Part shown: positions 10,715 through 49,725 of the stretch, in pieces
How positions within the stretch are numbered: position 1 is the stretch's first letter
Layout of the letters: every line of letters begins with the position of its first letter
From: Candidatus Poribacteria bacterium
GTDB taxonomy: Bacteria; Poribacteria; WGA-4E; PCPOR2b
Reading direction: 5' to 3'
NCBI GenBank assembly: GCA_965208675.1
Contig: OZ242351.1
Span: 1,024,001-1,088,000, forward strand
DNA length: 64,000 nt
The notes under the pieces: model-generated
What the model saw: only the letters and a program-made list of their open reading frames with translations
Databases searched by the model: none
Told to the model about the DNA's origin: nothing
Program-made: the position numbers and the translations under genes

Positions 10715-12049
10715 TGGAATGACCCCAAAAAACTGGACAGTGAGCTAAGAAGGATTTTATAATAATTAACCGTCCAGAAAGGGGCTATCATGTCGAAGAC
10801 AAGACGTCAATTTACACCCGAATTTAAGCTCGAATGTGTACTAGATATCATCAGTGGGCGGAAACGCCCAGTCGAAATTTGTAACGAATATCAAATCAGC
10901 GATACCTTACTGTCCAAATGGCGCCAACACTTCATGGAAAACGCTGCGAATCTCTTTGTGGGTGAGCAGAACCACAAGAACGCCTCCAATGCGCGCATCG
11001 CTGAACTGGAGCGTCTCGTCGGGCAATTGACACTGGAGCTGTCTGCCTCAAAAAAAGTATTGAGTTACTTCGACTCTCGATAAAGCAGAAACGGGAATTG
11101 GCGAAACGCGGCAGCGAAGCATTTCCCATTAGCCTACTGTGTAATGTGCTCGGCTTGTCTCGAAGCAGTTTCTATTACGATTCCAAAGCCGATGGTGATG
11201 CTCAGCTTTGCCGGCATATCGAGCAAATACGTTTATCAAATCACCGCTATGGGTATCGCAGAATCACAAATGAACTGCATCGTCAAGGATTGGTTGTCAA
11301 CCGAAAACGGGTGCAACGTCTGGTTGGCGCACTAGGGCTTCAGGTACGTCCTAGGCGAAAGCGGGTTATCACCACCAACAGTCAACCCGGACGATATGCG
11401 TATCCGAATTTGCTCAAAGATTTATCAGTCACTTATCCTGACCAGATATGGTGTGCAGATATCACCTATGTTCCACTGGCTAGTGGTCAAATGGCTTATC
11501 TGGCGTTATTGTTTGATGTTTTTACTCGAACCATAAGAGGCTGGGAGTTGTCAAAAAACATGTCAGTTAACCTGCTGTCTGGGGCTTTGAGAAAAGCATT
11601 AGCAAGACAGCATCGTCCGCAAATCCATCATTCAGACCGAGGTGGACAGTACATTGCTGAGAAGTATTGTCAGCAATTGAGAGCGATAGCGTGCCGCATT
11701 TCCATGACGGACCGTGGGAAACCGTGGCAGAATCCATACGTTGAGAGTACGATTGGCAGAATCAAAGACGAGTATATCGTTGACTCCGAGTATCAGAATT
11801 TCCGGGATGCATACAACCAACTTAGTCTAGTATTAGATGTCGTGTATAATCAGAAAAGGCCTCATTCAGCGCTAGGCTATCGGACACCTGCTGAATTCGA
11901 GGCAGCGTATAATGCACACTAGAACACCAATCGATATTTAATCTTGAATTAACAACGCAGCACTAACACAGTTATAGGTTAAGTCCTAAACTTCAAAATA
12001 CCTTCTTAACATCGACATTTTCGTGTCCAAACAATTGGGGTCACTGCCA
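10715..12049 (+). mobile_element. IS3-family insertion sequence (copy A)
   Basis: Imperfect IRs TGGAATGACCCCAAAAAACTGGACA / TGTCCAAACAATTGGGGTCACTGCCA enclosing orfA and orfB. Confidence 0.9.
10790..11922 (+). CDS. IS3 transposase OrfA (10790-11083) / OrfB (to 11922), -1 frameshift
   Basis: HTH OrfA (RRQFTPEFK); A7G slippery run at 11050-11057; OrfB DDE motifs WCADITY, HHSDRGGQY, NPYVES. Confidence 0.92.
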
Positions 12050-12051
12050 AT

Positions 12052-13367
12052 TATAATTACCCCCAAAAACTAGACAGTGTCTTAAGGTGGAATTGTTGCT
12101 GTCAAAACGGCCATGTTATGAGCCATAATAAGGCTCAGCAATGCCAAGAATTGCGAAAGGAGTTTGTTTAACATGGCTCGTAGAAAACAGTACGATAATC
12201 GATTCAAAGCGCAGGTGGCGATTGAAGCCATTAAAAATGAACGCACCATGGCGCAGATTGCCAGTGACTACGAAGTCCACCCGAATCAGGTCAGGCAGTG
12301 GAAAAGACAGATTCTGGAACAATCACCCCAGCTATTTGCGAACGGACACACGCAATCAACTTCCGACAACGACCGCCTTATAGCTGAACTCTACCGGCAA
12401 ATCGGTCAGTTGAAGGTAGAACTAGACTGGCTTCAAAAAAAAACTCGAATGCTCCATTAGCACAGAAGCGGCGGCTTGTCAAGCAAGAGCGCGGTGCTCC
12501 ATCGGTTTCGAGACAGTGCGAACTGTTAGGGTTGCCGCGCGCTTCGTATTATTATCAACCCGCAGCGGAAGAATCGCCGGAAAACCTGCTTTATATGCGT
12601 CTGATTGATGAACAGTACATTAAAACGCCGTGCTACGGTGTCCCTCGAATGACGGACTGGCTATGTGATAATGGCCACGCTGTCAACCGGAAACGGATTG
12701 CTCGGTTGATGCGAAAGATGGACTTAGTTGCCATCTATCCCAAGCCCCGTCTCTCCAAGCACGGCAGGCCGTCGAAAAAGTATGCTTATCTACTGAAGGA
12801 TTCAATTATCACTCGACCGGACCAGGTATGGGCAACTGATATCACCTATATCCGTTTGAACACCGGCTTTGTGTATCTAGTGGCGATTATGGATTGGTAC
12901 TCTCGATATGTGTTATCATGGGAATTGTCAAATACACTAGACGTTTACTTTTGTCTATCGGCACTGGAACGGGCATTGAGTTGTTCTAGCCCTTTGATAT
13001 TCAATAGCGACCAGGGCGCGCAGTTCACGTCAGATGCCTTTACGACTCGGCTTGAATCGGCTAACATTGCCATCAGTTGGACTGGTGCTGGCAGCGTGTT
13101 TGACAACATTTTAATTGAGCGGCTCTGGCGGACCGTCAAGTATGAACATGTGTATCTTCACGCTTATGACTCAGTTCACGCGGTTTGGTGTGGCTTGAAC
13201 AACTATTTCAAGTTTTATAATGAGGAGCGGCTTCATACGTCGCTCAATACTAGAACACCTCATGAGGTGTATTTTCAAAAATCCTAGGTGTTGAAGCATA
13301 GCCGGATTGTCTAGCAATTACACCTTAATAGACGAGCATTACTGTCTAAACATTGGGGGTAAGTAAA
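12052..13367 (+). mobile_element. IS3-family insertion sequence (copy B, a different element)
   Basis: IRs TATAATTACCCCCAAAAACTAGACAG / CTGTCTAAACATTGGGGGTAAGTAAA. Confidence 0.9.
12173..13287 (+). CDS. IS3 transposase OrfA (12173-12460) / OrfB (to 13287), -1 frameshift
   Basis: AAGGAG SD before ATG 12173; A9C run at 12435-12444; OrfB WATDITY, FNSDQGAQF, NILIERLWRTVKYE. Confidence 0.92.
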
Positions 13368-13581
13368 CCTTCCTATGACCAAAATGCGTTGGCTTACGCT
13401 CCACCAATCACATTTACTTACGCAACCAAACCACGCTATGCGCGGGCACATTGAGAATCCTGCTGCCTGCCCCGCAAAACGCAACCTACTTCAACTTGCC
13501 CGCCTTTCAGGTTTAGCCACAAACTACGCATTGAGTTTTACTGTCCGACTTTGGTATGATATGGGGGCTAGGAGAATGGCT

Positions 13582-15207
13582 ATGAATATGCTGTATTACG
13601 GAGATAACCTCGAAATCCTAAGAGAGCATATCCCCGATGAAAGCGTAGATTTGATATACATTGATCCGCCGTTCAACTCAAATCAGGCCTACAATGTCAT
13701 TTTCAGTGAGACAGACGGCACAGCATCACAAGCGCAAATTCAAGCCTTCGAGGACACATGGCGGTGGGGCGACGCCACTGAGCAGGCATACCATGAGTTG
13801 GTCGGCACCGCGCCGCACGTTCTAGTTGAGACAATCAAGAGTTTTCGCGGCTTCCTTACCGAGACGAACCTGATGGCATATCTCGTGATGATGGCGCTGC
13901 GATTAGTGGAGCTGCACCGCGTCCTTAAGCCGACTGGGAGTTTTTATCTCCATTGTGACCCGAAAGCATCGCATTATCTGAAGATCATTTTAGACCAGGT
14001 GTTTGGAGTTCAGAATTTCCGGAACGAAATTTATTGGAAAAGAAAGACAGGGCGTGCCGGCCCAACCAACCGCTTTGGAACATCCTGTGATATACTCCTT
14101 TGGTATTCTAAATCTAATGACTATACGTTTACTCCTCAATTTCGCAAGAGTAATACTGAATATATAGAAAAGATGTTTCGCTTTACCGATGAGGATGGAC
14201 GAATCTATATGACTGATAACCTTGCAAGCCCTAATCCAAGGCCGAATCTAACGTATGAGTATAAAGGCTATAAACCGCCGGAGAAAGGATGGGCAATATC
14301 ACGGGAAAAAATGGAACAGTGGGATAGAGAGGGCAGGCTCCATTTTCCTAAATCTCCTAATGGTCGCATCCAGCGGAAACGATACTTGGATGAGTTGATA
14401 GGAGAAGAAGTTCCCTCGCTTTGGGACGACATTCTTGCCATTGGGTCACAAGCTAAAGAACGTCTAGGCTATCCAACCCAAAAACCTGAAGCACTGCTAG
14501 AGCGGGTAATTGAAGCCAGTAGTAACGAGGGCGATGTTGTTTTGGACGCCTTCTGTGGTTGCGGCACGGCTGTCGCCGTTGGCGAACGGCTCAACCGCCA
14601 GTGGATTGGGATTGACATTACGCACCTTGCTATCTCCTTATTGAAGTATCGCCTTGCAGATGCCTTCGGCGATGATGCGGAATATGAAATCGTCGGTGAG
14701 CCAAAAGACATGGCCAGCGCGGAGGCTTTAGCCGTTCAGGATCGTTATCAATTCCAATGGTGGGCGTTGAGCCTGATTCGGGCAAGACCTTATAAGGAGA
14801 AAAAAAGAGGGGCTGACGAAGGCGTGGACGGGGTTATCTATTATCAAGACGTTGAGCCGGATAACACGAAAAAGGTGCTAACTCGGAAGATTGTCGTTCA
14901 AGTCAAAAGCGGGAAGGTTTCTGTCAAGGACATACGAGAACTCAAATCGGTCGTCGAAAATCAAGACGCTGTAATCGGTGTCTTTATCACTCTCAACACC
15001 CCAACCCAGCCGATGCTCAAGGAAGCGGCAGCGGCAGGTCGATTTCAATGGCTTCACGTCAAAGACATCACGTATCCAAAGATTCAGATTCGCACGATAC
15101 AAGAATTGCTAGATGGGAAGGGTATCGAGTATCCGCGTACACCTACTGATGTCACGTTTCGCAAAGCGAAGCGGGCAAACCCGAAAGTCGATCAGCTGGA
15201 GCTTTAG
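13582..15207 (+). CDS. N6/N4 DNA methyltransferase fused to a C-terminal Mrr-like PD-(D/E)xK endonuclease domain
   Basis: LYYGDNL, DPPF (motif IV), YPTQKP, DAFCGCGT (motif I); C-terminal DEGVDG...VQVKSG; AGGAG SD at 13570. Confidence 0.88.
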   Translation: MNMLYYGDNLEILREHIPDESVDLIYIDPPFNSNQAYNVIFSETDGTASQAQIQAFEDTWRWGDATEQAYHELVGTAPHVLVETIKSFRGFLTETNLMAYLVMMALRLVELHRVLKPTGSFYLHCDPKASHYLKIILDQVFGVQNFRNEIYWKRKTGRAGPTNRFGTSCDILLWYSKSNDYTFTPQFRKSNTEYIEKMFRFTDEDGRIYMTDNLASPNPRPNLTYEYKGYKPPEKGWAISREKMEQWDREGRLHFPKSPNGRIQRKRYLDELIGEEVPSLWDDILAIGSQAKERLGYPTQKPEALLERVIEASSNEGDVVLDAFCGCGTAVAVGERLNRQWIGIDITHLAISLLKYRLADAFGDDAEYEIVGEPKDMASAEALAVQDRYQFQWWALSLIRARPYKEKKRGADEGVDGVIYYQDVEPDNTKKVLTRKIVVQVKSGKVSVKDIRELKSVVENQDAVIGVFITLNTPTQPMLKEAAAAGRFQWLHVKDITYPKIQIRTIQELLDGKGIEYPRTPTDVTFRKAKRANPKVDQLEL

Positions 15208-17769: not shown

Positions 17770-18354
17770 ATGAACGGCAATCCAACCTGGTTGGAAGCCC
17801 TGCAAGACGATGATGTTAGAAAACATATCGCATACCACATCACGCTGGTCGGCACCACCAAAGCGGTCAATGCAATCTATCATAATCCGGCTTTCGCAGG
17901 TTGCCGAACCGGTGACGCAAAGCAGGATCGTAACGCCATACGCTCCGCAATTCAGGTTTGCAATCCGAGAAATAGAGACCGCTTCAACAGCCAAAAATAC
18001 GGTGCCGCCGTCGCAGATGCGATGAGCCACCTTTTGGAGTATTTAGTCTCAAAATCCATCCCGAACCTTGAACAAACCCAGGAACGGTTGCAAAAAGTCG
18101 ACGACCAAGCCGCCAAAACGGAGGACATCGATGACCTTAAACAACTCCTACTGCAACAGCAAATTCACATTCGACATCAAGGAGCCCTATTATCCCAGAT
18201 GCAATGGGCTTTTCAGTTCCTGCAATGGCGCGCGCAACATGCCGGTCCCGGTGCAGCCCAACCCCGGCTTGATTCGGAAGATGCGCTCGGGGAACTCCCC
18301 GAACCTCCTGAGTCGCTACGAGGAAATTCGACGCCGGCGCAAAGTCCTGAATGA
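17770..18354 (+). CDS. putative terminase small subunit-like protein (module 1)
   Basis: AGGAGGG SD; helical 194 aa; overlaps the TerL gene; clear paralog of 49177..49725. The TerS role is inferred from position only. Confidence 0.6.
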   Translation: MNGNPTWLEALQDDDVRKHIAYHITLVGTTKAVNAIYHNPAFAGCRTGDAKQDRNAIRSAIQVCNPRNRDRFNSQKYGAAVADAMSHLLEYLVSKSIPNLEQTQERLQKVDDQAAKTEDIDDLKQLLLQQQIHIRHQGALLSQMQWAFQFLQWRAQHAGPGAAQPRLDSEDALGELPEPPESLRGNSTPAQSPE

Positions 18355-20059
18355 TGACGACCGGGCGCTAATCGTCCACATGGCTTATCTCGATCCGAGG
18401 TTCTTTGTCGAATACTACCTCCACGACCCGCAGTCCATGTCCCCCCTGCAGCCCCACCATGTCCGCCTGCTCAACCTCATCCCCTACGACAAAACCGGCG
18501 TCAAAGTCAACGTCCAAGCCCCGCGCGGCTCCGCCAAGACAACCTGCTGCGCCGTCTGGTACCCGCTCTGGAGAATCTGTTTCAAATCATTTCAACTCGC
18601 TGAAGGCGTCCCGGAAGAAAAATTCATCCTCATCATCAGCCGCAATCAAACCATGGCAAAGGGCATTCTCGAAAACCTCAAACGTCTAACCGAAAATGAG
18701 AATATTGTCCGGGACTTTGGTAACCTATCTGGTCGTGTATGGAAAAAAGATGAATGCGAGACCGCTAACGGCGTCGCTGTCCGAGTGCTCGGACGAAAGC
18801 AGTCCCCGCGCGGCGCTCTCGTCGCCGGTAAACGCCCCTCGCTCGTCGTCGTCGACGACCTCGAAGACCCGAAACGCTGCTTAAACCCCGATCTGCGTGA
18901 GGAAGATGCGGACTGGTTCTTTTCGGACATCATGTTCGCCTCCGACATCGGCGGAAACCTTAACGTCATCTACGCCGACACCGTCAAGCATCCGGACAGC
19001 CTGTCCATGCGTCTAACACAAACCCCCGGCTGGAACAAAGTCCACTTCAAAGCAATCCTCGACCCCGAAGACCTCTACCACCCCACCCACGAACATCTCT
19101 GGAAAGGTTGGGACGCAATTTATAGTGACTTGTCGTTAGACGACGCAGAACGAGAAGCCAAAGCCGACGAATTCTACAACGCGCATGAGGAGCAGTTGAA
19201 CGCCGGCGTCACCGCTCTTTGGCCCGAAGAGCTGTCCTACCTGAAAGTCCGCAAGATGATCGCAGAGCGCGGATACCACTACACCCTGCGCGAACTGCAA
19301 AACATCGCTCGCGACCCAAGCATGTCATTGTTCGACATTGAGAACGCCATGACGTTTGAGGTCGTTGACGCAGGCTTAAAACGAGGCGACGGTCGCATCG
19401 TCGAATGGCATCAGATCGGCGGCTTCACCACCTACATCGACACCATGGGCGGCCGCGACGCGCAGCAGAATTCCTACGCCTGCGCTGTCGTCGTCGTATG
19501 GGAGCCGCTGCCCGGCGGACGCAAATCCCACCCCGATTCGTTAGCCGGTGTCAACGCTTACGTGCTGGACTGCTGGATGGGCAAAGCTGGACGCGCCGAA
19601 CAGTTCGAGAACGGCATTCTTAAACACCAGCGTTCGGACGCCGTGCTGTACAGAGCCGTACCAAAATCGTATTTTGTGGCTGAGGAGCGTCCGGACCCGG
19701 ACCGCTCCATCCGAACGTCTTACGATAATGTATTCAACGCGCTAAAAGAAGAACTCAAATTTGAAAAGCCGCTGGTCTATCACCCGCAGACACAAAATAA
19801 AGAAGAACGCATTGCAAACTTGGAGCCGCCCATCAAGAACGGTTGGCTCGCATTCAATAAGGTAGGTTTGCCGAGTGAGTTCTGGAAGCAGATGCGCGAA
19901 TTCCCGACTTCCGAGCACAACGACGCCCCCGACGCTGTTCAGGGCGCGCTTCGCCACAGAATCACCACCACCCCCAAGCAGCGCGAACACGACGAACGGC
20001 GTCAACGCGCACGCGACGAGTGGTATGGCGAATACGGACGTCCAACCGTCCATCTATAA
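18239..20059 (+). CDS. phage terminase large subunit-like protein (module 1)
   Basis: Walker A APRGSAKTT, Walker B LVVVDDLED, nuclease-domain motifs YIDTMGG, NKEERIANLEPPIKNG, FPTSEHNDAPDA; start uncertain (frame open from 18068). Confidence 0.88.
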   Translation: MPVPVQPNPGLIRKMRSGNSPNLLSRYEEIRRRRKVLNDDDRALIVHMAYLDPRFFVEYYLHDPQSMSPLQPHHVRLLNLIPYDKTGVKVNVQAPRGSAKTTCCAVWYPLWRICFKSFQLAEGVPEEKFILIISRNQTMAKGILENLKRLTENENIVRDFGNLSGRVWKKDECETANGVAVRVLGRKQSPRGALVAGKRPSLVVVDDLEDPKRCLNPDLREEDADWFFSDIMFASDIGGNLNVIYADTVKHPDSLSMRLTQTPGWNKVHFKAILDPEDLYHPTHEHLWKGWDAIYSDLSLDDAEREAKADEFYNAHEEQLNAGVTALWPEELSYLKVRKMIAERGYHYTLRELQNIARDPSMSLFDIENAMTFEVVDAGLKRGDGRIVEWHQIGGFTTYIDTMGGRDAQQNSYACAVVVVWEPLPGGRKSHPDSLAGVNAYVLDCWMGKAGRAEQFENGILKHQRSDAVLYRAVPKSYFVAEERPDPDRSIRTSYDNVFNALKEELKFEKPLVYHPQTQNKEERIANLEPPIKNGWLAFNKVGLPSEFWKQMREFPTSEHNDAPDAVQGALRHRITTTPKQREHDERRQRARDEWYGEYGRPTVHL

Positions 20060-20198
20060 CGCCGCGAAAACCGCACTGTTAGCAGGCATTCAGGATTGAC
20101 CGTCCAGGTTTAAATTTGATATACTATTCCTGACGGCGGCTAATGACACGCTGCGCCTGAACATTACGGCTTAGGAGAAGCGGTTACCGAATTTTAAT

Positions 20199-20228
20199 TT
20201 GATTTTTGTCGCGAGAGTTTAGTATAAT
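20199..20228 (+). promoter_or_regulatory. sigma70 promoter upstream of the structured RNA candidate
   Basis: TTGATT-18nt-TATAAT; a second promoter TTGACC-18-TATACT with extended TG lies at 20096-20125. Confidence 0.6.
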
Positions 20229-20234
20229 TAATAC

Positions 20235-20578
20235 TAGTTCTGGTCAGATTAAAAATCTCATTTCGAGCTTACAAGGAACCCGGACGATGGCGATTTGTGA
20301 ATGCTAAAAAACTAGGTTGTTCTGGATATCAATACTCGCACAAGGTAAGCACGCGCATTCGGCAATAAGCTGCCCTCTGATATGACGTGGAAACACGCCT
20401 ACGCGCAAATGTTGAGTTCGCCAGGACATCCCAGTTGCATAATCGAGTCCCCTTTTCGTGGCCGGAGAAAGGAAAGCATATCCGACAGCAATAATTTGAA
20501 GTAAGCTCAATCCATGACCAGATGGTTTTCTTACATCGGAAACGGACCACGATTCAAAAAGGGATCGTGGTTTTTTTG
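20235..20578 (+). ncRNA. putative structured ncRNA or cis-regulatory leader (family not recognised)
   Basis: Nested long-range pairings TCTGGTCA/TGACCAGA, GAGCTTAC/GTAAGCTC, GGTTGTTCTGG/CCAGGACATCC; GAAA-tetraloop hairpin; bounded by a promoter and a terminator. Confidence 0.6.
20546..20577 (+). terminator. intrinsic terminator
   Basis: ACCACGATTC-AAAAAG-GGATCGTGGT hairpin followed by a T7 run. Confidence 0.8.
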
Positions 20579-20692
20579 TTGCCATTTATTGAAATCCGCA
20601 CTCTAAAAATGGACCTCTCGCAGCCAAAAATTGATTTTTAAATTCAATTCTTACGAAAGCCATACACCTCCTGAAAAACGGGGGAGTTTATC

Positions 20693-22924
20693 ATGAAACT
20701 GATCGAACCAATGCCAAATCCAGTCAGACAAAAGATACAAGGGTTACTTGCGCCCGGCGAAGATGAGCTAATCTGCGTATCTGCTGACATGAACCGCGAT
20801 GGCCGTTACGGCACACGCTGGATTGTGGTCACAAACAAGCGCATCGTAATAATTTCGGAAGATGCCGTCGATGATGTTGTACAGATACTCATTGAAGATG
20901 TCGTATCCGTACGGACCGAACCCCTAGTGGGCGGAGGACGTTTGGAGATAGAGCGGAAGGCAAGCCCAACCGCCATTGTCCGGTACTCCAACTCTATGGC
21001 GGTGAAGTTCTCCGAAGTCGCGCGGGGCATTGAACAGCTCCGCAAGCAGGAACCGTTCCAAATTGATAGCCAACTTGAACGCACACGATGTGAAAAATGC
21101 GGCAGACTGTTGCCTGAAAAGGACGGCATCTGCCCGGCTTGTATTCAGCGGTTAGCGACGCTGCGGCGAATCGGAAGCTACCTAATGCCCTACAAATGGC
21201 GTGCTGCACTTCTCGCAATGGCGTCTCTCATTGGAACGCTGACAGAGATTTTACCGCCGCTGATTACCCGGCACATCGTGGACGATGCGTTGGTACCCGC
21301 GAAAGAATCAGCCATCGGCATGGAGGAACGGTTAACGCTGCTCGGTTGGTTTGTGCTGGGCTTAGTCGGTGTGCGGGTGTTGGGTTGGGGCGCGGAATGG
21401 GTACACGGCTGGACGGTGACCTGGTTGGGCGCCCGCGTCACAGCCGATATCCGAAGCCGGTTATACCGCCAACTCGAGCTGCTTTCACTGCAGTTTTATG
21501 ACAAGCGGCAGGTCGGCGCGGTGATGTCACGCGTGACAAGAGACGCCGGCAGGTTACAGGACTTCCTCGTGGATGGCATGCCCTATCTGATCATTAATGG
21601 ATTGATGATTGTTGGCATACTGGTATTCCTGTTTCTGATGAGTTGGCGGTTGACACTATACATTTTATTGCCGATCCCGATTCTGCTAGCGTGGGGAGTC
21701 CTCTTCTGGCGGCGGATGCGCCGGTACTTCCATAAGTGGGATCAGAGATGGTCAGATCTCATGTCTACGGTGAACGAAACGTTGTCTGGAATTCGCGTGG
21801 TAAAGGCATTCGCACAGGAGATGCGCGAGGTTGCCTCGTTTAATAGACGAAATAAGGTGCTGCGGCGGATAGCTGTAAGGACGGAAATCAACTGGGAAAT
21901 CTTTTTCGCCACATCGAGTCTTGTGACTAGCTTGGGGGTACTGATAATTTGGCTTTTCGGAGGGATAGAGATGTTCAAGGGCGAGTTTTCTATCGGTAAG
22001 CTATTGGCATTCTACGGCTTCATGTGGCTCGTCTACGGTCCCATCCAATGGTTCGGGCAGGTCAACAATTGGATGACACGTGCGTTCGCGGGAGCCGAGC
22101 GAATCTTCGAGGTCATCGACACGCCGCCTGAAGCTTACGACGATGCAGACGCCGTACCCATGCCTAACATTGAGGGCAGGATCGATTTTCAGAAAGTCAC
22201 GTTTGGTTACGATAAGAGCAAGCCGGTGCTGCATGAAATTAACCTCGAAGTCACACCGGGGGAGATGGTAGGACTTGTCGGCAAGTCAGGTGTGGGTAAG
22301 ACGACCACCGTGAACCTAATCTCCCGGTTTTACGACGTAGATCACGGCGCAATTGAGATTGACGGCGTGGATAACCGAACAATCCGGTTGGAAGATCTGC
22401 GCAGCCAGATTGGCATCGTCGCCCAAGAACCTTTTTTGTTCAGCGGTACAATTTCTGAGAACATCGGCTACGGCAAACCCGGCGCAGGCTTTGAAGAACT
22501 CATGGACGCCGCACAAGCCGCCAACGCTCACAATTTTATCGTCGCCAAGCCAGACGGCTATGATACCCAGGTGGGAGAACGGGGAAACAACCTGTCAGGC
22601 GGTGAAAAGCAGCGAATCGCTATTGCCCGGGCAATCCTCCACAATCCGAGGATTTTAATTTTGGATGAAGCGACTTCGTCGGTGGACGTGGAGACGGAAA
22701 AGCAGATTCAGGAAGCCGTTTCCCGGCTAACCAAGGGCCGCACCACCATCGCAATTGCCCACCGGTTGTCAACGCTGCGGAACGCGAACCGGTTAGTCGT
22801 GCTTGAGGAGGGGCGTATCGTGGAGGTTGGGACACATAGCGAATTGATGGAAAAACGAGGGATTTTCTACGACCTTGTTCAATTACAGCGGCAGACATCA
22901 GAAATTATCGCAGTTAAAGCGTAG
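20693..22924 (+). CDS. ABC exporter (TMD+NBD) with N-terminal extra domain and CxxC-CxxC zinc ribbon
   Basis: GKSGVGKT, LSGGEKQR, ILDEATS; CEKCG...CPAC before the TMD; GGGGAG SD. Confidence 0.93.
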   Translation: MKLIEPMPNPVRQKIQGLLAPGEDELICVSADMNRDGRYGTRWIVVTNKRIVIISEDAVDDVVQILIEDVVSVRTEPLVGGGRLEIERKASPTAIVRYSNSMAVKFSEVARGIEQLRKQEPFQIDSQLERTRCEKCGRLLPEKDGICPACIQRLATLRRIGSYLMPYKWRAALLAMASLIGTLTEILPPLITRHIVDDALVPAKESAIGMEERLTLLGWFVLGLVGVRVLGWGAEWVHGWTVTWLGARVTADIRSRLYRQLELLSLQFYDKRQVGAVMSRVTRDAGRLQDFLVDGMPYLIINGLMIVGILVFLFLMSWRLTLYILLPIPILLAWGVLFWRRMRRYFHKWDQRWSDLMSTVNETLSGIRVVKAFAQEMREVASFNRRNKVLRRIAVRTEINWEIFFATSSLVTSLGVLIIWLFGGIEMFKGEFSIGKLLAFYGFMWLVYGPIQWFGQVNNWMTRAFAGAERIFEVIDTPPEAYDDADAVPMPNIEGRIDFQKVTFGYDKSKPVLHEINLEVTPGEMVGLVGKSGVGKTTTVNLISRFYDVDHGAIEIDGVDNRTIRLEDLRSQIGIVAQEPFLFSGTISENIGYGKPGAGFEELMDAAQAANAHNFIVAKPDGYDTQVGERGNNLSGGEKQRIAIARAILHNPRILILDEATSSVDVETEKQIQEAVSRLTKGRTTIAIAHRLSTLRNANRLVVLEEGRIVEVGTHSELMEKRGIFYDLVQLQRQTSEIIAVKA

Positions 22925-23090
22925 CGTCCGCATATCTCCTCATGTACACCTTGACAATATTACCGCGAATTTTGGATTATGGCATATTCAAGCTTAAGGT
23001 CAGTAATTCTATCGCACTCCACGAAAATGCCGCGCATCGACGTGGCATTCAATCGTGCCAGCGCAAACTCGGACAAATGGAACACCAATA

Positions 23091-25319
23091 ATGCAACCGT
23101 TTATTGAATCGCTGCCTCCTGAGGTGGATGCGAAACTGCAAAGCGCGAAACCTTCGGATGAACAGGTACTTATCCAGGTCTCCGCGGATCTCACCACCGA
23201 CCAAGCATTTGGGGAAAAGTGGTTGGTAGCAACCAAATTCCGTCTACTGGTCGTGCCCGCTGATGGCGTCGTTGAGCAAATACCGCTCGACACAATTCAG
23301 GACATCAAAACTGAAGAACTGGTCGGCGGCGGCTGCCTAGTCGTTGAACGAAAATCGGGCGCACCCGTCTATCTGCACTATTCCAGCTCTTTAATTCCAA
23401 AATTCGCTGAGGTAGCGCAAGGAATCGGTCAACTCTCCAAAGGCAAACCGCTTGAGCTGCCGACGGAGATGGAACGGACGCGATGCGAAAAGTGCGGACG
23501 GCTGCTCCCGGAGAAAGACAGCAAATGTGTAGCCTGCATTAAAAAATGGAACACCTTAATGCGAATCCAAAGCTACGTTAACCCTTACCGCGTTCAACTC
23601 ACGTTGGTTGTAGTAATCACAGTGATCGGCGTGTTGATAAATTTGCTTCCGCCGCTAATTACTGAACGCATCATCGACGATGTGCTTATACCGTTGTCAA
23701 ACTTTAATCTTTTAGTTTGGCTTGTGGCGGGGTTATTGGGCGCCTATCTTTTTAGTTGGCTGTCCGAAATCGGGCATACGGCATTAAGCTGTTGGCTGGG
23801 TTTCCGCGCGGCTGAGGACATCCGGGCTAAACTCTATCGTTGTTTGCAGTTCCTGCCCATTAGATTTTACGACAAACATAAAGTGGGCGCGCTAATATCT
23901 CGCATGACCAACGACGCAGATCGGTTGGAGGATTTTATCGCCTTTGAGGTTCCCTACGTCATTTCCAACGCACTGTTATTAGTGGGTATTTTCTGCCTGC
24001 TGTTGTACAAAAATTGGGTGCTTACGCTCTATGTGTTGCTCCCCGTGCCGCCGATTGTTCTGGGGGGAATCTTCATGTGGAATCGTTTGACGCGTTTTTG
24101 GCGCCTTTGGTCTGCGAGGTGGGGGCGGTTCTCCTCGCACCTGAACGAGTCGATCACGGGGATTCGATTGGTGAAGGCTTTCGCGCAGGAAGACCGTGAA
24201 AGCACAGTGTTTGACCGGCATAACGACGCACTGCGGCAGGTAAACGTTTCGGGCAATCGGGCATGGTTCGTTTTCTACACCATCACAAACTTTCTGATGA
24301 GTTTCGGCGCCTTCTTTGTCTGGTATTTTGGCGGGAAACAGGTTCTGGGTGAGGAGTTTAAACTCGGAGAATTGACTGCATTCATTAGTTACCTTTGGAT
24401 GCTTTATCAACCGCTTCGGTGGTTTGGCGACTCCTACAACTTCATGCTTCGCGCTTTTGCCGGCGCCGAGCGAATTTTTGAAGTGATGGACGCGCCTTCT
24501 GATCCGTTTGATAATCCAAATGCCAGAAATATGCCAAAAATTGACGGGCGGATTACCTTCAAAGATGTCAAGTTTGGTTACGATCCAGGCAAGCCGGTCC
24601 TCAGAGATATTAATCTAACGGTAGAACCGGGAGAAATGATTGGCTTAGTCGGCAAATCCGGCGTGGGTAAAAGCACGATGGTCAATCTGATATGCCGATT
24701 CTACGATGTGACTCACGGCACTTTGCAGGTTGATGACGAGGATATCCGGAACATCCGTATCGAGGATTTGCGGTCTCAAATCGGCATAGTCCTACAGGAG
24801 CCATTTCTGTTTAACAGGACAATTGCGGAAAACATCCACTACGGCAATCCGGATGCGTCGTTTGACGAAGTCATGCGCGCAGCGATTGCTGCAGAAGCGC
24901 ATGATTTCATCGTTGCTAAACCCGACGGATATGACACGATGGTCGGCGAGCGCGGGAATAAACTCTCCGGCGGCGAAGGGCAGCGTATCGCTATCGCGAG
25001 AGCCATCCTGCATAATCCAAAAATTTTGATTCTCGACGAAGCGACATCATCGCTCGACACCGCAACAGAAAAGAAGATTCAGGCTGCTATTGCTAAGTTA
25101 ATCGAAGGACGGACGACGTTTGCCATTGCGCACCGGCTTTCCACGCTGCGCAACGCCGACCGGCTGATTGTTCTGGATGAGGGAAAAATCGAAGAGATTG
25201 GCACCCATGAGGAATTGATGGATCGGAAAGGGCGCTTCTACAATTTAGTCCAGACGCAAAAGGAAACATCGGCAGTCATGGCGGTCGGCGGCGGGAAAGA
25301 CGATCCGGGCAATGAATAG
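23091..25319 (+). CDS. ABC exporter paralog with N-terminal extra domain and zinc ribbon
   Basis: GKSGVGKS, LSGGEGQR, ILDEATS; CEKCG...CVAC; end-to-end paralog of the upstream gene. Confidence 0.93.
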   Translation: MQPFIESLPPEVDAKLQSAKPSDEQVLIQVSADLTTDQAFGEKWLVATKFRLLVVPADGVVEQIPLDTIQDIKTEELVGGGCLVVERKSGAPVYLHYSSSLIPKFAEVAQGIGQLSKGKPLELPTEMERTRCEKCGRLLPEKDSKCVACIKKWNTLMRIQSYVNPYRVQLTLVVVITVIGVLINLLPPLITERIIDDVLIPLSNFNLLVWLVAGLLGAYLFSWLSEIGHTALSCWLGFRAAEDIRAKLYRCLQFLPIRFYDKHKVGALISRMTNDADRLEDFIAFEVPYVISNALLLVGIFCLLLYKNWVLTLYVLLPVPPIVLGGIFMWNRLTRFWRLWSARWGRFSSHLNESITGIRLVKAFAQEDRESTVFDRHNDALRQVNVSGNRAWFVFYTITNFLMSFGAFFVWYFGGKQVLGEEFKLGELTAFISYLWMLYQPLRWFGDSYNFMLRAFAGAERIFEVMDAPSDPFDNPNARNMPKIDGRITFKDVKFGYDPGKPVLRDINLTVEPGEMIGLVGKSGVGKSTMVNLICRFYDVTHGTLQVDDEDIRNIRIEDLRSQIGIVLQEPFLFNRTIAENIHYGNPDASFDEVMRAAIAAEAHDFIVAKPDGYDTMVGERGNKLSGGEGQRIAIARAILHNPKILILDEATSSLDTATEKKIQAAIAKLIEGRTTFAIAHRLSTLRNADRLIVLDEGKIEEIGTHEELMDRKGRFYNLVQTQKETSAVMAVGGGKDDPGNE

Positions 25320-25412: not shown

Positions 25413-25973
25413 ATGGAAAATACTAAATCTTTTAGTGATAAAGACAAGCCTAAAGCACAGCATTCAGTTACGCCGATTCAGACACCGCCGCCGGAATGCG
25501 TCAATCCAAAGGACATTCGATTGTTCCGAGAACCCCCGTGGAAACTGCGATTAACCATTGCCGGCGACCGTTCCTACCTCATGGTGCGAGTCGCTCGCGC
25601 AGCGCCGCTATCTCAACCGTCGAGGTATATCTGCTTTCTTGATGAAAAGAATGAGGTAATCTGGACTGTCGAAGACCCAAGCATCCTGGACGCTGACACT
25701 CGCCGAATCTTAAAGGAAGAACTCGACCAACGGTATATGACCGCTGTTATTGAGGTAGTCAACTCGCTCCGGAACGAATTCGGGGTGTCGTATTGGGACG
25801 TACAGACCAACCGAGGAAATCGGGAGTTTGTGGTACGGAACGTGTCCGAGAGCGCACAATGGATTTCTCCACGCCGTCTATTGCTAATTGACGTGGACGG
25901 CAACCGATTCGAAATCCCGGATATCGACGTGCTCGACAAGCGGAGTTTTGGTCTGATAGATATGGTGATTTAG
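25413..25973 (+). CDS. DUF1854 family protein
   Basis: RAAPLS.P.RYI, W.VQTNRG..EF, LLIDVDGNRFEIPD...LD..S motifs; usual partner of this ABC family. Confidence 0.85.
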   Translation: MENTKSFSDKDKPKAQHSVTPIQTPPPECVNPKDIRLFREPPWKLRLTIAGDRSYLMVRVARAAPLSQPSRYICFLDEKNEVIWTVEDPSILDADTRRILKEELDQRYMTAVIEVVNSLRNEFGVSYWDVQTNRGNREFVVRNVSESAQWISPRRLLLIDVDGNRFEIPDIDVLDKRSFGLIDMVI

Positions 25974-26366
25974 ATGAATATAAACTCGAATTACAGGTTC
26001 ATAGAAAATGCTGCTGCAACCCACCGATTCCGCAATTTATCTGGGCTACTAACGTGGAGTTACCAAAGGCCATTTTCACCGATACCGAGTTATAGTAATT
26101 CTCAAATTGAATTGCATAGAAACGTTCTGAATTTATTGCAATAAACGTCCAGATGTGATAGAATATCTATTTAATATTTTCTGGCGCCGATGTCATTTAT
26201 AATCCCGTAAATTGGCGTAAGCAACTGCGCTATCCGTAATGAGGTTCGATTGGCAAAGCGTCATGCACTCGTTTCCGTTTGTGTATTTCGGGCGTAGCGG
26301 CGATTGACTAAACCAGTCTTCGGACCGCTTAGCCCTGCCCACCTAGGTACAAAGGAGGCGATTTCA

Positions 26367-27860
26367 GTGGATATGAAATTTTCGGAGTCGGTGTCTCCAA
26401 AATTTTCCAAAATGGGATTGACGTTTGACGATGTTTCATTAATTCCCGGCGAATCAAACGTACTTCCCAATGAAATTGACACATGCACACGATTGACCCG
26501 CCATATAGGCCTTAACATCCCTATCTGCAGCGCCGCAATGGACACCGTGACGGAAGCGGAACTTGCGATCGCTCTTGCGCGCGAGGGCGGCATTGGGATG
26601 ATCCACTTTAACTGCTCCATTGATGAGCAGGTCAAAGAAGTGGACAAAGTCAAACGCTCGGAAAGCGGCATGATTGACGATCCTATCACGTTAACCCCTG
26701 ACAAAACGGTGCGCGACGCCTTGGCAGTAGCCGCCCGCTACCGGATTGGCGGTGTTCCGATTGTGACGAATGAAGGATTCCTCCTTGGCTTAATCACGAA
26801 CAGAGATTTGAAATACGAAACCGATTTAGATTTACCGGTGACAGCCTTGATGACGTCAAGCGACCAGCTCACCACAGCTTCACAGGGGGTTACGCTCGAA
26901 AAGGCGAAGCAAATCTTGCATCAAATTCGCAAGGAAAAATTACCAATTGTGGATGAGAATTTTCGTCTCTGCGGGTTAATTACAATTAAAGATATTGACA
27001 AAGTCCAGAAATATCCCGCAGCTTGTAAAGATGAATCGGGGAAATTGAGAGTTGGGGCAGCCATCAGTCCGCATTGGGGATTAGATAAAGTCGGAATGCT
27101 GGTTGACGCGGGCGCGGATGTATTAGATATCGACACAGCGCACGGTCATCATCAGAATGTGATTCGTTCGACGCGTAGGATTAAGACGGAATTTCCGGGC
27201 GTAGAGTTGATTGCCGGCAATGTAGTGACTGCCGACGCGACCAACCAACTGATTGATGCTGGCGCCGACGCGGTAAAAGTTGGCATGGGACCAGGTTCGA
27301 TTTGTACAACTCGCGTAGTCTCCGGAATCGGCGTACCGCAGATAACGGCGGTTTACGACTGCGCACGAGAGGCTGACAAAAACGGTATACCGGTAATCGC
27401 AGACGGCGGCATCCGATATTCAGGCGATGTTGCGAAGGCAATCGGCGCAGGCGCAAGTTCGGTCATGATAGGCAGCCTTCTCGCCGGAACGGAGGAGAGC
27501 CCCGGAGAAACAGTTATCTATCAAGGACGGACGTATAAAATCCACAGAGGTATGGGGTCGCTGTCTGCCATGAAAGAACGCGGCGGCAGTGAGCGATACG
27601 GTCAGAAGAACCTCAGTCTATCGAACCTCATACCAGAAGGAATCGAAGGACGAGTTCCTTACAAGGGCAAGCTAGATGACTTTGTCTATCAATTGGTCGG
27701 CGGACTCCGTCTAGCAATGGGATATTGCGGTATACCTGACATCGAATCGCTTCGCGAGGAAAGCAAATTCATTCGAGTGACGGGTAGCGGCTACCGTGAA
27801 AGTCATCCGCATGACATCGCCATTACGGAAGAAGCGCCCAATTATAGCGTGATGCCCTAA
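26367..27860 (+). CDS. guaB: IMP dehydrogenase
   Basis: [18 protein letters not shown] pair, [13 protein letters not shown] active-site loop, ESHPHD; AAGGAGG SD before GTG 26367. Confidence 0.97.
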
Positions 27861-47462: not shown

Positions 47463-49328
47463 TTATATGTGAACGATGTTTCTTCTTCGTTCTCGGCGGC
47501 GTTCGTCAAGTTCGCGTTGATTTGCGGTTGTCGTGACTCTGGCGCGGAGTGCACCTTGAACGGCATCGGGCGCGTCGTTGTGCTCCGAGGTCGGGAATTG
47601 TCGAAACTGTGTCCAGAACTCCGCGGGCAAACCTTGTTCATTGAACGCGAGCCACCCGTTTTTGATCGCGGGTTCAAGGGTTGCGATTCGTTCCTCTTTG
47701 TTTTGGTTTTGGCGGTGGTAATAGATGTTCTTGTCGAAGTTTAGCTTACTTTTCATGGCGTTGAACGCTGAAGTATTCGCTTGTTGGATAGTGTAGTCCG
47801 GGTCGGGTCGCTGTTCGCAAACGAATTTAGATTCAGGATTTGTGTGTCCAAGCATTGCATCCGCACGTTGGTGGAGCAGGATGGCATTCTCCATCTGTTC
47901 TGTGAGCGGAACGCGACCCATCCAGCAGAGCAGGATGTATGCGTTGACTCCAGCAAGGGAGTCCACATTGTATTCGCGACCACCGGGGAGGGGTTCCCAA
48001 GCGACGACGACGGCGCAGGCGAAAGCGTTTTCGCGAGTATCTTTCCCACCCATGGAGTCGAGATAGGTGGTAAAGCCCCCGACGTTATTCCAAAAGACGA
48101 GCCGCCCGTCCGAACGCCGGAGTCCGTTGCCTTCAACCCGGAATGTGACGGCGTTGTCCATATCGAAGAGCGACATGCTGGGGTCGCGGGCAATGTTCTG
48201 GAGTTCGCGCAAACAGAAGTGGTATCCTCGCTCAACAATCATCTTCCGGACTTTGAGATAGGATAGCTTCTCGGACCAGAGCGCAGTGACGCCAAGGTTC
48301 ATATCCTCCGCGTTGGCATTATAGAATTTGTCCGCCTTTGCTTCGCGTTCAGCATCATCTAATGTCAAGTCGCGATAAATGGCTTCCCATTCTTTCCATA
48401 GGTATTCGTGGGTCGGGTGGTACAGGTCTTTGGGGGAACGGATAGCTTTGTAGTGTACGTTTTTCCAGCCGGCTGTCTTCGTTAGCCGCATGGAGATGCT
48501 ATCCGGGTGTTTTACGGTATCGGCGAAGATAAGGTTGATGTTCCCTCCGATGTCGGAAGTGAACATGACGTCCGTAAAGAACCAATCCCAATCTTCTTCA
48601 CGCAGATCGGGGTTTACGCAGCGTTTCGGGTCTTCGAGGTCGTCGACGATGACGAGCGACGGTCGTTTGTCCTCGACGAGTGCACCGCGCGGGGATTGGT
48701 TGCGTCCGAGGGGCAAGAGGGTGACGCCGTTGGCAGTCTCGCATTCGTTCGCTTTCCAGAAGGGACCGCGGAGGACTCCGAAGTCCTCGGCAATTTTAGG
48801 CTTTTCCATCAGTCCTTTGATATTGCGCAGATTTCTTTTTGCCATGAATTCGTTGCGGCTGATGATTAGGATAAATTTCTCGTCCGGGACGCCTTCAGCG
48901 AGTTGGAAGGCTTTGAAACAGATTCTCCACAGCGGATACCAGATAGCGCAGCAGGTTGTCTTTGCGGAACCGCGCGGGGCTTGGACGTTGACTTTGGCGT
49001 CGGTTTTGTCATACGGGATGGGATTGAGCAGCCGCACATGATGGGGCTGAAGCGACGACATTGTGTTCGGGTTGTGGAGGTAGTATTCCACAAAGAATTC
49101 GGGAAAGATATAAGCCATGTGCACCAATAGCGCCCGGTCGTCATCATTCCGGATTACTTCTTGCCGTCGGATTTTCTCATAATGACTTCGGAGTTTCCGG
49201 CAGTTTCCGTCCCGTATCTCGCGGATTAGATTGGGATTGGGTTGAATCGGCGCCCGTTTCGTCGGCAGGGCGCCGGTTGAATTGAACAGACCCCGCGAGC
49301 GACGATAAGGCTGATCTATGCTTATCAT
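47463..49328 (-). CDS. phage terminase large subunit-like protein (module 2)
   Basis: APRGSAKTT, LVIVDDLED, YLDSMGG, NKEERIATLEPAIKNG, FPTSEHNDAPDA; colinear paralog of 18239..20059. Confidence 0.88.
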   Translation of the reverse strand: MISIDQPYRRSRGLFNSTGALPTKRAPIQPNPNLIREIRDGNCRKLRSHYEKIRRQEVIRNDDDRALLVHMAYIFPEFFVEYYLHNPNTMSSLQPHHVRLLNPIPYDKTDAKVNVQAPRGSAKTTCCAIWYPLWRICFKAFQLAEGVPDEKFILIISRNEFMAKRNLRNIKGLMEKPKIAEDFGVLRGPFWKANECETANGVTLLPLGRNQSPRGALVEDKRPSLVIVDDLEDPKRCVNPDLREEDWDWFFTDVMFTSDIGGNINLIFADTVKHPDSISMRLTKTAGWKNVHYKAIRSPKDLYHPTHEYLWKEWEAIYRDLTLDDAEREAKADKFYNANAEDMNLGVTALWSEKLSYLKVRKMIVERGYHFCLRELQNIARDPSMSLFDMDNAVTFRVEGNGLRRSDGRLVFWNNVGGFTTYLDSMGGKDTRENAFACAVVVAWEPLPGGREYNVDSLAGVNAYILLCWMGRVPLTEQMENAILLHQRADAMLGHTNPESKFVCEQRPDPDYTIQQANTSAFNAMKSKLNFDKNIYYHRQNQNKEERIATLEPAIKNGWLAFNEQGLPAEFWTQFRQFPTSEHNDAPDAVQGALRARVTTTANQRELDERRRERRRNIVHI

Positions 49329-49725
49329 GAATTTGCTGCCTCAATTTGAGCCGTTTAAGGTCATCAATATTTTCGGTTTCCGCCGCCAAGTCATCAACTT
49401 GTTGCATCCGTTTGAGGGATTGATCGAGGTTTGGCAGGTGTTCCGCAACCAAAAACTCGTATTGGTCTCTCAAGGCGTCTACGAGGGCATCGCCATATTT
49501 TTGGGTGTTGAAGCGATCTTTAATTTTTGGATTGCAGGTCTGAATGGCGGAACGTATAGTTTTTCGATCCTGCACCGCGTTGTCGGTTCTGCATTCTGCG
49601 TAGTTAGGGCTTTGGAAAATGGCATCAACGGTCTTCGTGGTACCGAATCGCGCGATGCTGTAGGCGATACTTTTTCGGATGTCTTCGTCTTTCAAGGCTT
49701 CCAACCAAGTGGTTTTATCTAGCAT
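49177..49725 (-). CDS. putative terminase small subunit-like protein (module 2)
   Basis: TWLEAL.D.D.RK.IAY.I...GTTK, IRSAIQ.CNP...DRFN.QKYG shared with 17770..18354; AGAGG SD. Confidence 0.6.
   Translation of the reverse strand: MLDKTTWLEALKDEDIRKSIAYSIARFGTTKTVDAIFQSPNYAECRTDNAVQDRKTIRSAIQTCNPKIKDRFNTQKYGDALVDALRDQYEFLVAEHLPNLDQSLKRMQQVDDLAAETENIDDLKRLKLRQQIHDKHRSALSSLAGSVQFNRRPADETGADSTQSQSNPRDTGRKLPETPKSL

Follow-up and report, generated by a model that had tools for sequence, protein, structure and literature searches.

The locus and its transcription signals

We analysed a 64-kb stretch of a Candidatus Poribacteria genome (the window), in which a terminase-large-subunit-like gene (TerL-1) is followed by an intergenic element, two genes for half-transporter ABC exporters (ABC1 and ABC2) and genes for a DUF1854 protein and IMPDH (Table 1). 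The N-terminus of ABC1 shows a weak, sub-threshold bacterial-PH match. Amino-acid polymer export has been proposed for the DUF1854-type exporter system by one fitness study (10.1101/072470). Two rve-type (IS3-like) integrase ORFs, then a DNA-methylase/Mrr-nuclease fusion gene, are located at 11098-13287 and 13375-15207; together they make up a patch of mobile or defence-like character that precedes the element by a few kb. ARAGORN found no tRNA or tmRNA, and no TnpB, IscB or reverse-transcriptase gene adjoins the element. The same gene order is observed in three further loci (L001, L002 and L003). The four sequences were aligned (alignment A4) and form two clades, the window with L001 and L002 with L003.

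Table 1 Features of the locus and of its orthologues (window coordinates unless a locus is named; R1 is the covariance model of the element)
Feature	Position	Strand	Basis or remark
Terminase-large-subunit-like gene (TerL-1)	18068-20059		phrog_38 match, E = 2.6e-58
P1, upstream promoter-like site, TTGACC-18-TG-TATACT	20096-20125	+	Consensus scan, 10/12 matches
Promoter P2, TTGATT-18-TATAAT	20199-20228	+	Consensus scan; same relative place in 4/4 genomes
Variable 5′ segment of the predicted transcript	20235-20279	+	52-62% identity in every pair; carries the 5′ arms of both outer helices
Conserved core, ~186-nt irregular hairpin (rod) with 10x6-nt internal loop and variable apical part	20280-20465	+	RNAalifold consensus, A4 columns 50-235
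3′ domain without structure common to both clades	20466-20543	+	Holds the nearly invariant 27-nt block 20510-20536
Intrinsic terminator, 10-12-pair stem then 7-8 U	20544-20580	+	Scan matches in 4/4 genomes; 86-100% identity
Spacer, terminator to ABC1 start codon	20581-20692	+	Poorly conserved, mean column identity 46%
ABC1, half-transporter ABC exporter	20693-22924	+	Start codon at 20693
ABC2, half-transporter ABC exporter	23055-25319		
DUF1854 protein	25413-25973		
IMPDH	26304-27860		
Orthologue in L001	1780-2127		R1 374-395 bits (range over three)
Orthologue in L002	2536-2882		R1 374-395 bits (range over three)
Orthologue in L003	2788-3135		R1 374-395 bits (range over three)

The motifs present indicate that the element is a conserved non-coding transcription unit, comprising a sigma-70-type promoter, an RNA of ~345 nt and a strong intrinsic terminator. 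Both the promoter at 20199-20228 (P2) and the clean terminator had been described in an earlier note on this DNA (the sequence-only reading); the consensus scan confirmed them, and both occur in all four genomes. In the window the terminator consists of a 12-pair stem (20544-20573) and a T run. The AGTATAATTA block at P2 is invariant in all four sequences and the -10 region nearly so. The predicted start of the RNA is at about 20235. The upstream site P1 has an equivalent in L002 and L003; L001 lacks it and carries a deletion of the P1-P2 interval. Transcription from P1 would give a longer isoform of the RNA. We note that a CGCGAAAACCGCACYGTTAGCAGGCATT block just upstream of P1 (20060-20095 in the window, and its counterparts in the orthologues) is also conserved in all four genomes; it may bind a regulator or form the 3′ end of the TerL transcript. 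The distance from the terminator to the ABC1 start codon ranges from 112 to 386 nt. L002 has ~250 extra nucleotides here (L002 2960-3215), an insertion unique to this genome among the four, with a GC-rich inverted repeat in it. We infer that the RNA is transcribed as a discrete species.

Orthologues, selection and coding potential

Eighty related loci, each of 16.5 kb, were fetched from reference genomes with the DUF1854 alignment; the nearest are labelled Candidatus Poribacteria and the remainder are mainly Latescibacterota and Gemmatimonadota. Searches with blastn, nhmmer --max and R1 located orthologues of the element in three of them (L001 to L003), all Candidatus Poribacteria and at the same site each time, and R1 gave no credible match in the other 77. 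Weak nhmmer --max matches of the four-sequence profile in L007, L009, L019 and L021, and the same motif in L013, were judged not to be homologues; by eye the stretch reads as a coding gene on the opposite strand, since its variation falls mainly at apparent third codon positions. The sequence-only reading had asked whether homologues travel with the ABC genes or with terL. The element stands before ABC1 in 4/4 genomes, but it does not require TerL (L001) and is missing from the 77 other loci.

No repeats of the region were found within the window, where the RNA is thus single-copy, and DNA comparison of 20060-20692 with phage and plasmid records gave no match. When a spurious 93-residue minus-strand frame was compared with 5.8 billion predicted proteins, the window's own entry was recovered along with one partial relative (40 of 42 aligned residues identical), which suggests that the element is uncommon or, at any rate, seldom predicted as a gene. 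A MITE or IS remnant was considered and rejected: the element is single-copy in the window, occurs among 81 sources solely at the orthologous site, and has outer inverted pairings that are not conserved. Two other loci show long intervals with few or no sizeable ORFs. L004 has a Poribacteria DUF1854 gene with no ABC gene within 8 kb, and the 1.1 kb upstream of it (L004 6822-7935) contains no ORF of at least 110 codons and no R1 match. The place held by TerL-1 in the other genomes is occupied in L001 by ~1.3 kb (L001 1-1340) with no ORF of at least 60 codons and several copies of a motif resembling GGTGATCAACTGAGCGGATAG...GCGATAGT.

Four-fold sites gave a neutral reference for the comparison of the two clades, at which ABC1, ABC2 and IMPDH are 51-59% identical and DUF1854 48-55%. 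Between the same clades the core of the RNA is 71-74% identical, the 3′ domain 73-76% and the terminator, its best-conserved part, 86-89%; the terminator stem stays paired through one-sided A-U to G-U changes. That the conserved part exceeds the four-fold sites indicates purifying selection. The first ~45 nt of the predicted transcript are no more alike, in any pair, than four-fold sites (52-62% identity) and look unconstrained. Within its clade, the L001 RNA is 85% identical to that of the window overall and 88% in the core.

No ORF is common to all four sequences. In L002 and L003 the 93-codon minus-strand frame is interrupted, and these two loci differ in their frame-breaking single-base indels. 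All four sequences have a mini-ORF of 6 or 10 codons that encodes MAIC(E/K)C (20288-20308), with AAGGA nine nucleotides upstream; both Cys codons are kept, one by a synonymous change in L002. It was rejected as a leader peptide: most of the substitutions in it are non-synonymous, and ~240 nt separate it from the terminator. It is probably a chance occurrence within a conserved helix. The ORF that opens at an invariant ATG (20522) varies in length from 26 to 53 codons and reads through the terminator, and was discounted. A type I toxin-antitoxin (hok-like) locus was likewise set aside, as no conserved small hydrophobic ORF was found in the four sequences.

Folding of the RNA

The + strand of 20235-20578 has a minimum free energy of -103.3 kcal/mol (z = -3.24), matched by none of 100 dinucleotide shuffles; for the - strand z = -2.34. 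RNAalifold, applied to the four sequences, gives an irregular hairpin (columns 50-235, corresponding to 20280-20465), a small pair of 3′ hairpins and the terminator. In this consensus 96.4% of cells are paired, with 92-100% per helix in the core. Compared with 200 column shuffles, the alifold energy is z = -4.14 for the whole RNA (0/200 as good), -2.71 for the core (3/200) and -2.81 for columns 41-315 (1/200). The 3′ domain does not fold better than shuffles. It is the location of the 27-nt block ATCCATGACCAGATGGTTTTCTTACAT, invariant over 20510-18 and 20520-33.

The sequence-only reading had proposed collecting homologues and looking for covariation; three orthologues were indeed found, but with four sequences in two clades the compensatory changes are not above chance, being present in 10 helices compared with 11.2 +/- 3.5 in column-shuffled alignments. 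Double-sided changes are seen in 4 of 77 pairs, a number reached by 12 of 500 shuffles, with four sequences only. Between the window and L002, 20 of 127 paired columns differ, 16 by transitions, as against 51 of 148 unpaired columns, 25 by transitions (Fisher p = 5e-4 and 0.03); this comparison is partly circular because the structure was derived from the same alignment. The stability of the core is also uneven, with z = -1.8 in the window, -4.1 in L001, and unremarkable values of -0.06 in L002 and -1.24 in L003, and the single-sequence minimum-energy folds of L002 and L003 do not match the consensus. All four sequences retain the closing stem 20280-87/20456-65. With two effective lineages, a conserved core fold is no more than plausible.

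Every sequence element listed in the sequence-only reading is present in the window at the position it gave, and the orthologues distinguish among them. The helix of GGTTGTTCTGG (20315-25) with CCAGGACATCC (20421-31) has 10 of 11 pairs and is kept in all four sequences. The outer pairing of TCTGGTCA (20239-46) with TGACCAGA (20515-22) is complete in the window and in L003 (8/8, there with two G-U pairs) but falls to 7/8 in L002 and 6/8 in L001, and that of GAGCTTAC (20265-72) with GTAAGCTC (20501-08) is confined to the window, with no equivalent in the orthologues. The nested architecture closing the 5′ and 3′ ends, which the reading had described, is partly specific to the window. As to the local hairpins, GGCA..TGCC (20361-74) is present in the window, as are CGTG-GAAA-CACG (20386-97) and CCTTTT..GAAAGG (20451-72); the second of these has a UUAA/CUAA loop and a weakened stem in L002 and L003, however, and the third acquires a mismatch in L002.

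Read in antisense, an ABC2 stretch at 24741-24825 is similar to the 5′ half of the RNA (nhmmer 13 bits, E = 7e-4 within the window), and the same weak match recurs in L002 and L003. We take this part of ABC2 to be the conserved Q-loop coding stretch. As blastx gave no protein-level relation (E >= 0.14), we judged the similarity to be chance plus conserved coding sequence.

Interpretation and comparison with known RNAs

A covariance-model scan of the whole 64-kb window against Rfam 15 returned no match at gathering thresholds, in agreement with the sequence-only reading, which had recognised no known family. Permissive scans (E<=10) of 20000-20750 in the window, of L003 2500-3270 and of L001 1-2240 gave chance-level matches only; the highest-scoring of these, a resemblance of the terminator to TEG147, reached 19.2 bits where the gathering score is 56.1. 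A motif called 'Poribacteria-1' is known; if Rfam 15 includes it, the scan found no match to that motif either. Our literature search found nothing on regulatory RNAs of Poribacteria, nor any relevant paper on 'Poribacteria-1'.

The window holds two copies of a two-gene module, a small ORF and a TerL-like gene, at 17785-20001 (+) and 47497-49710 (-), with 72% DNA identity. The second terminase-like gene, TerL-2 (47463-49328, minus strand), is 69% identical to TerL-1 in amino-acid sequence. Copy 1 of the module is syntenic in L002 and L003, where protein identity is 80%, but in L001 it has decayed. At its four-fold sites the clades show an identity of 0.63-0.67, compared with 0.51-0.55 in neighbouring genes, which could reflect gene conversion or more recent spread.

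The sequence-only reading had allowed for a link between the RNA and the adjacent terminase gene. The RNA might, for example, be a packaging RNA or belong to a TerL element. The two adjoin in the window, L002 and L003, and the scan of the window found no terminator between the TerL stop codon and the RNA. We nevertheless reject the link as extremely improbable because the repeat common to the two modules is confined to 17785-20001 and stops short of the RNA, TerL-2 has no copy of the RNA beside it (nhmmer, model R1), and L001 has kept the RNA, promoter and terminator with only the last ~75 codons of TerL-1 remaining. A 6S-like or other global protein-binding RNA (a mimic or sponge) too divergent for the Rfam models would be in keeping with the ~186-nt rod with its internal loop and with the tandem promoters before the RNA gene, an arrangement also found at E. 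coli ssrS. A 6S RNA is expected to be a rod of ~185 nt with a large central bubble that imitates an open promoter, to bind the sigma-70 holoenzyme and to template pRNA; here the internal loop is just 10x6 nt and the rod is part of a transcript of ~345 nt, almost double the length of 6S. With the cut-off at E<=10, neither 20000-20750 of the window nor the two orthologous regions gave a 6S-family match, and the element is limited to a small subclade among the 16.5-kb loci searched, whereas a housekeeping RNA would be expected in all Poribacteria. GGA motifs number 10 in the window (5.3 expected), 6 in L002 (5.1) and 7 in L003 (5.6), with 5 sites invariant; since the enrichment is not kept in L002 or L003, a CsrB/RsmZ-type sponge was rejected. 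The 6S-like identity raised by the sequence-only reading is not supported by these comparisons, and we regard this whole group of explanations as very unlikely. It is also conceivable that the element has no function as RNA, being either conserved regulatory DNA or the decaying remnant of an inserted or mobile sequence with chance promoter- and terminator-like motifs. Its narrow distribution, covariation not above chance, inconsistent thermodynamic stability and position bordering a region that contains IS3-type transposase genes, the methylase-Mrr fusion and the terminase-like repeat would all fit. We think this unlikely, however, given between-clade identity well above the four-fold level across ~300 nt, a promoter and terminator kept in 4/4 genomes with terminator changes that preserve pairs, the single copy in the window with no phage or plasmid match, and the lack of protein-level similarity to neighbouring genes.

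The choice thus lies mainly between two readings, and neither is held firmly. Tentatively, we favour a lineage-restricted, independently transcribed, stand-alone regulatory RNA gene; a cis-acting leader of the ABC1-ABC2-DUF1854 operon, either a riboswitch or a protein- or RNA-controlled attenuator at which transcription from P1 or P2 stops unless a signal allows read-through, is possible though on the unlikely side. A leader role had been among the proposals of the sequence-only reading, and its position and orientation, directly upstream of ABC1 and on the same strand, hold in 4/4 genomes. In the window and L001 the scan detected no + strand sigma-70-like promoter in the interval from terminator to ABC1, and in L002 and L003 it gave only weak 9-of-12 sites; given this and the constant head-to-tail placement, a cis role fits equally well. 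In addition, among 19 Poribacteria-labelled loci (leaving aside L004 and L005), an ABC1-type gene beside ABC2 occurs in just the three that carry the RNA; the other 16 (L006-L021) lack both the RNA and an ABC1-type gene and show a single ABC2-like gene. Against a leader, in folds of the nascent RNA the partner of the terminator 5′ arm differs in each of the four sequences (columns 294-298 in the window, 226-232 in L001, 52-61 in L002 and 6-15 in L003). The antiterminator suggested earlier, built on TGGTTTTC (20523-30), is present as sequence but is not a conserved alternative and covers only 4 nt of the 12-pair stem. None of ~45 loci of other phyla with ABC1-ABC2-DUF1854 has the element, their upstream gaps being mostly <300 nt and mostly too short for it, and in the 16 other Poribacteria loci the 500 nt preceding the ABC gene contain no terminator. 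The poorly conserved spacer, with its insertion in L002, also argues against a leader, and a hairpin sequestering the ABC1 Shine-Dalgarno sequence was dismissed as no better than shuffles. A bolder form of the leader reading makes the RNA the first example of a novel class of large structured leaders, one that gates expression of a cyanophycin-type polymer exporter (ABC1-ABC2-DUF1854) in response to a sensed metabolite or protein, with terminator read-through as the sole route to operon transcription in this clade; we consider it improbable. The exporter system is still poorly understood, and the RNA would provide a handle on it if it proves to control the exporter.

Several features lead us to prefer a stand-alone RNA gene: the consensus-like promoter, the very strong terminator with the invariant block beside it, tolerance of the 250-nt insertion in L002, the lack of a common antiterminator and the absence of the element from the operon in other lineages. 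Under this preferred reading, transcription would start near 20235 from P2, possibly helped by P1, and would be ended near 20578 by the intrinsic terminator, to yield an RNA of ~345 nt. Its conserved body (~20275-20578) would consist of the ~186-nt irregular hairpin, the 3′ domain with its 27-nt invariant block and the terminator hairpin. Such an RNA would act in trans, by base-pairing or by binding protein, and the invariant block just upstream of the terminator would be the likeliest contact site. A scan for RNA duplexes with start regions in the window returned implausible long-loop structures only. Poribacteria are uncultivated, and an RNA gene that is well delimited and selectively constrained could join the family databases.

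Among known systems, GOLLD, ROOL, HEARO/omega RNA and OLE resemble the present RNA in being larger than a typical sRNA and in lying beside mobile or phage-like genes, but no Rfam match connects them and the RNA is outside the repeated TerL unit. With 6S RNA (RF00013 and related families) it shares the rod-like hairpin with internal loop and the tandem promoters; it differs in giving no covariance-model match, in its length, in the small size of the loop and in its restricted distribution. Like terminating riboswitches and attenuators, it occupies the 5′ region of an operon whose orientation it shares, and has a folded domain followed by an intrinsic terminator. It has, however, no conserved antiterminator and no Rfam riboswitch match, its terminator stands well away from the start codon, and outside one subclade the operon lacks the element. 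With stand-alone bacterial regulatory RNA genes it has in common a conserved promoter of its own, a strong intrinsic terminator, no conserved ORF, a narrow phylogenetic range and a conserved block beside the terminator. Its length exceeds that of most such RNAs, and its conservation extends over ~300 nt rather than a short seed. For now, the RNA is one more lineage-specific candidate with modest structural support. The element belongs to no curated family and, on our analysis, would work most like an ordinary, though long, stand-alone bacterial regulatory RNA gene.
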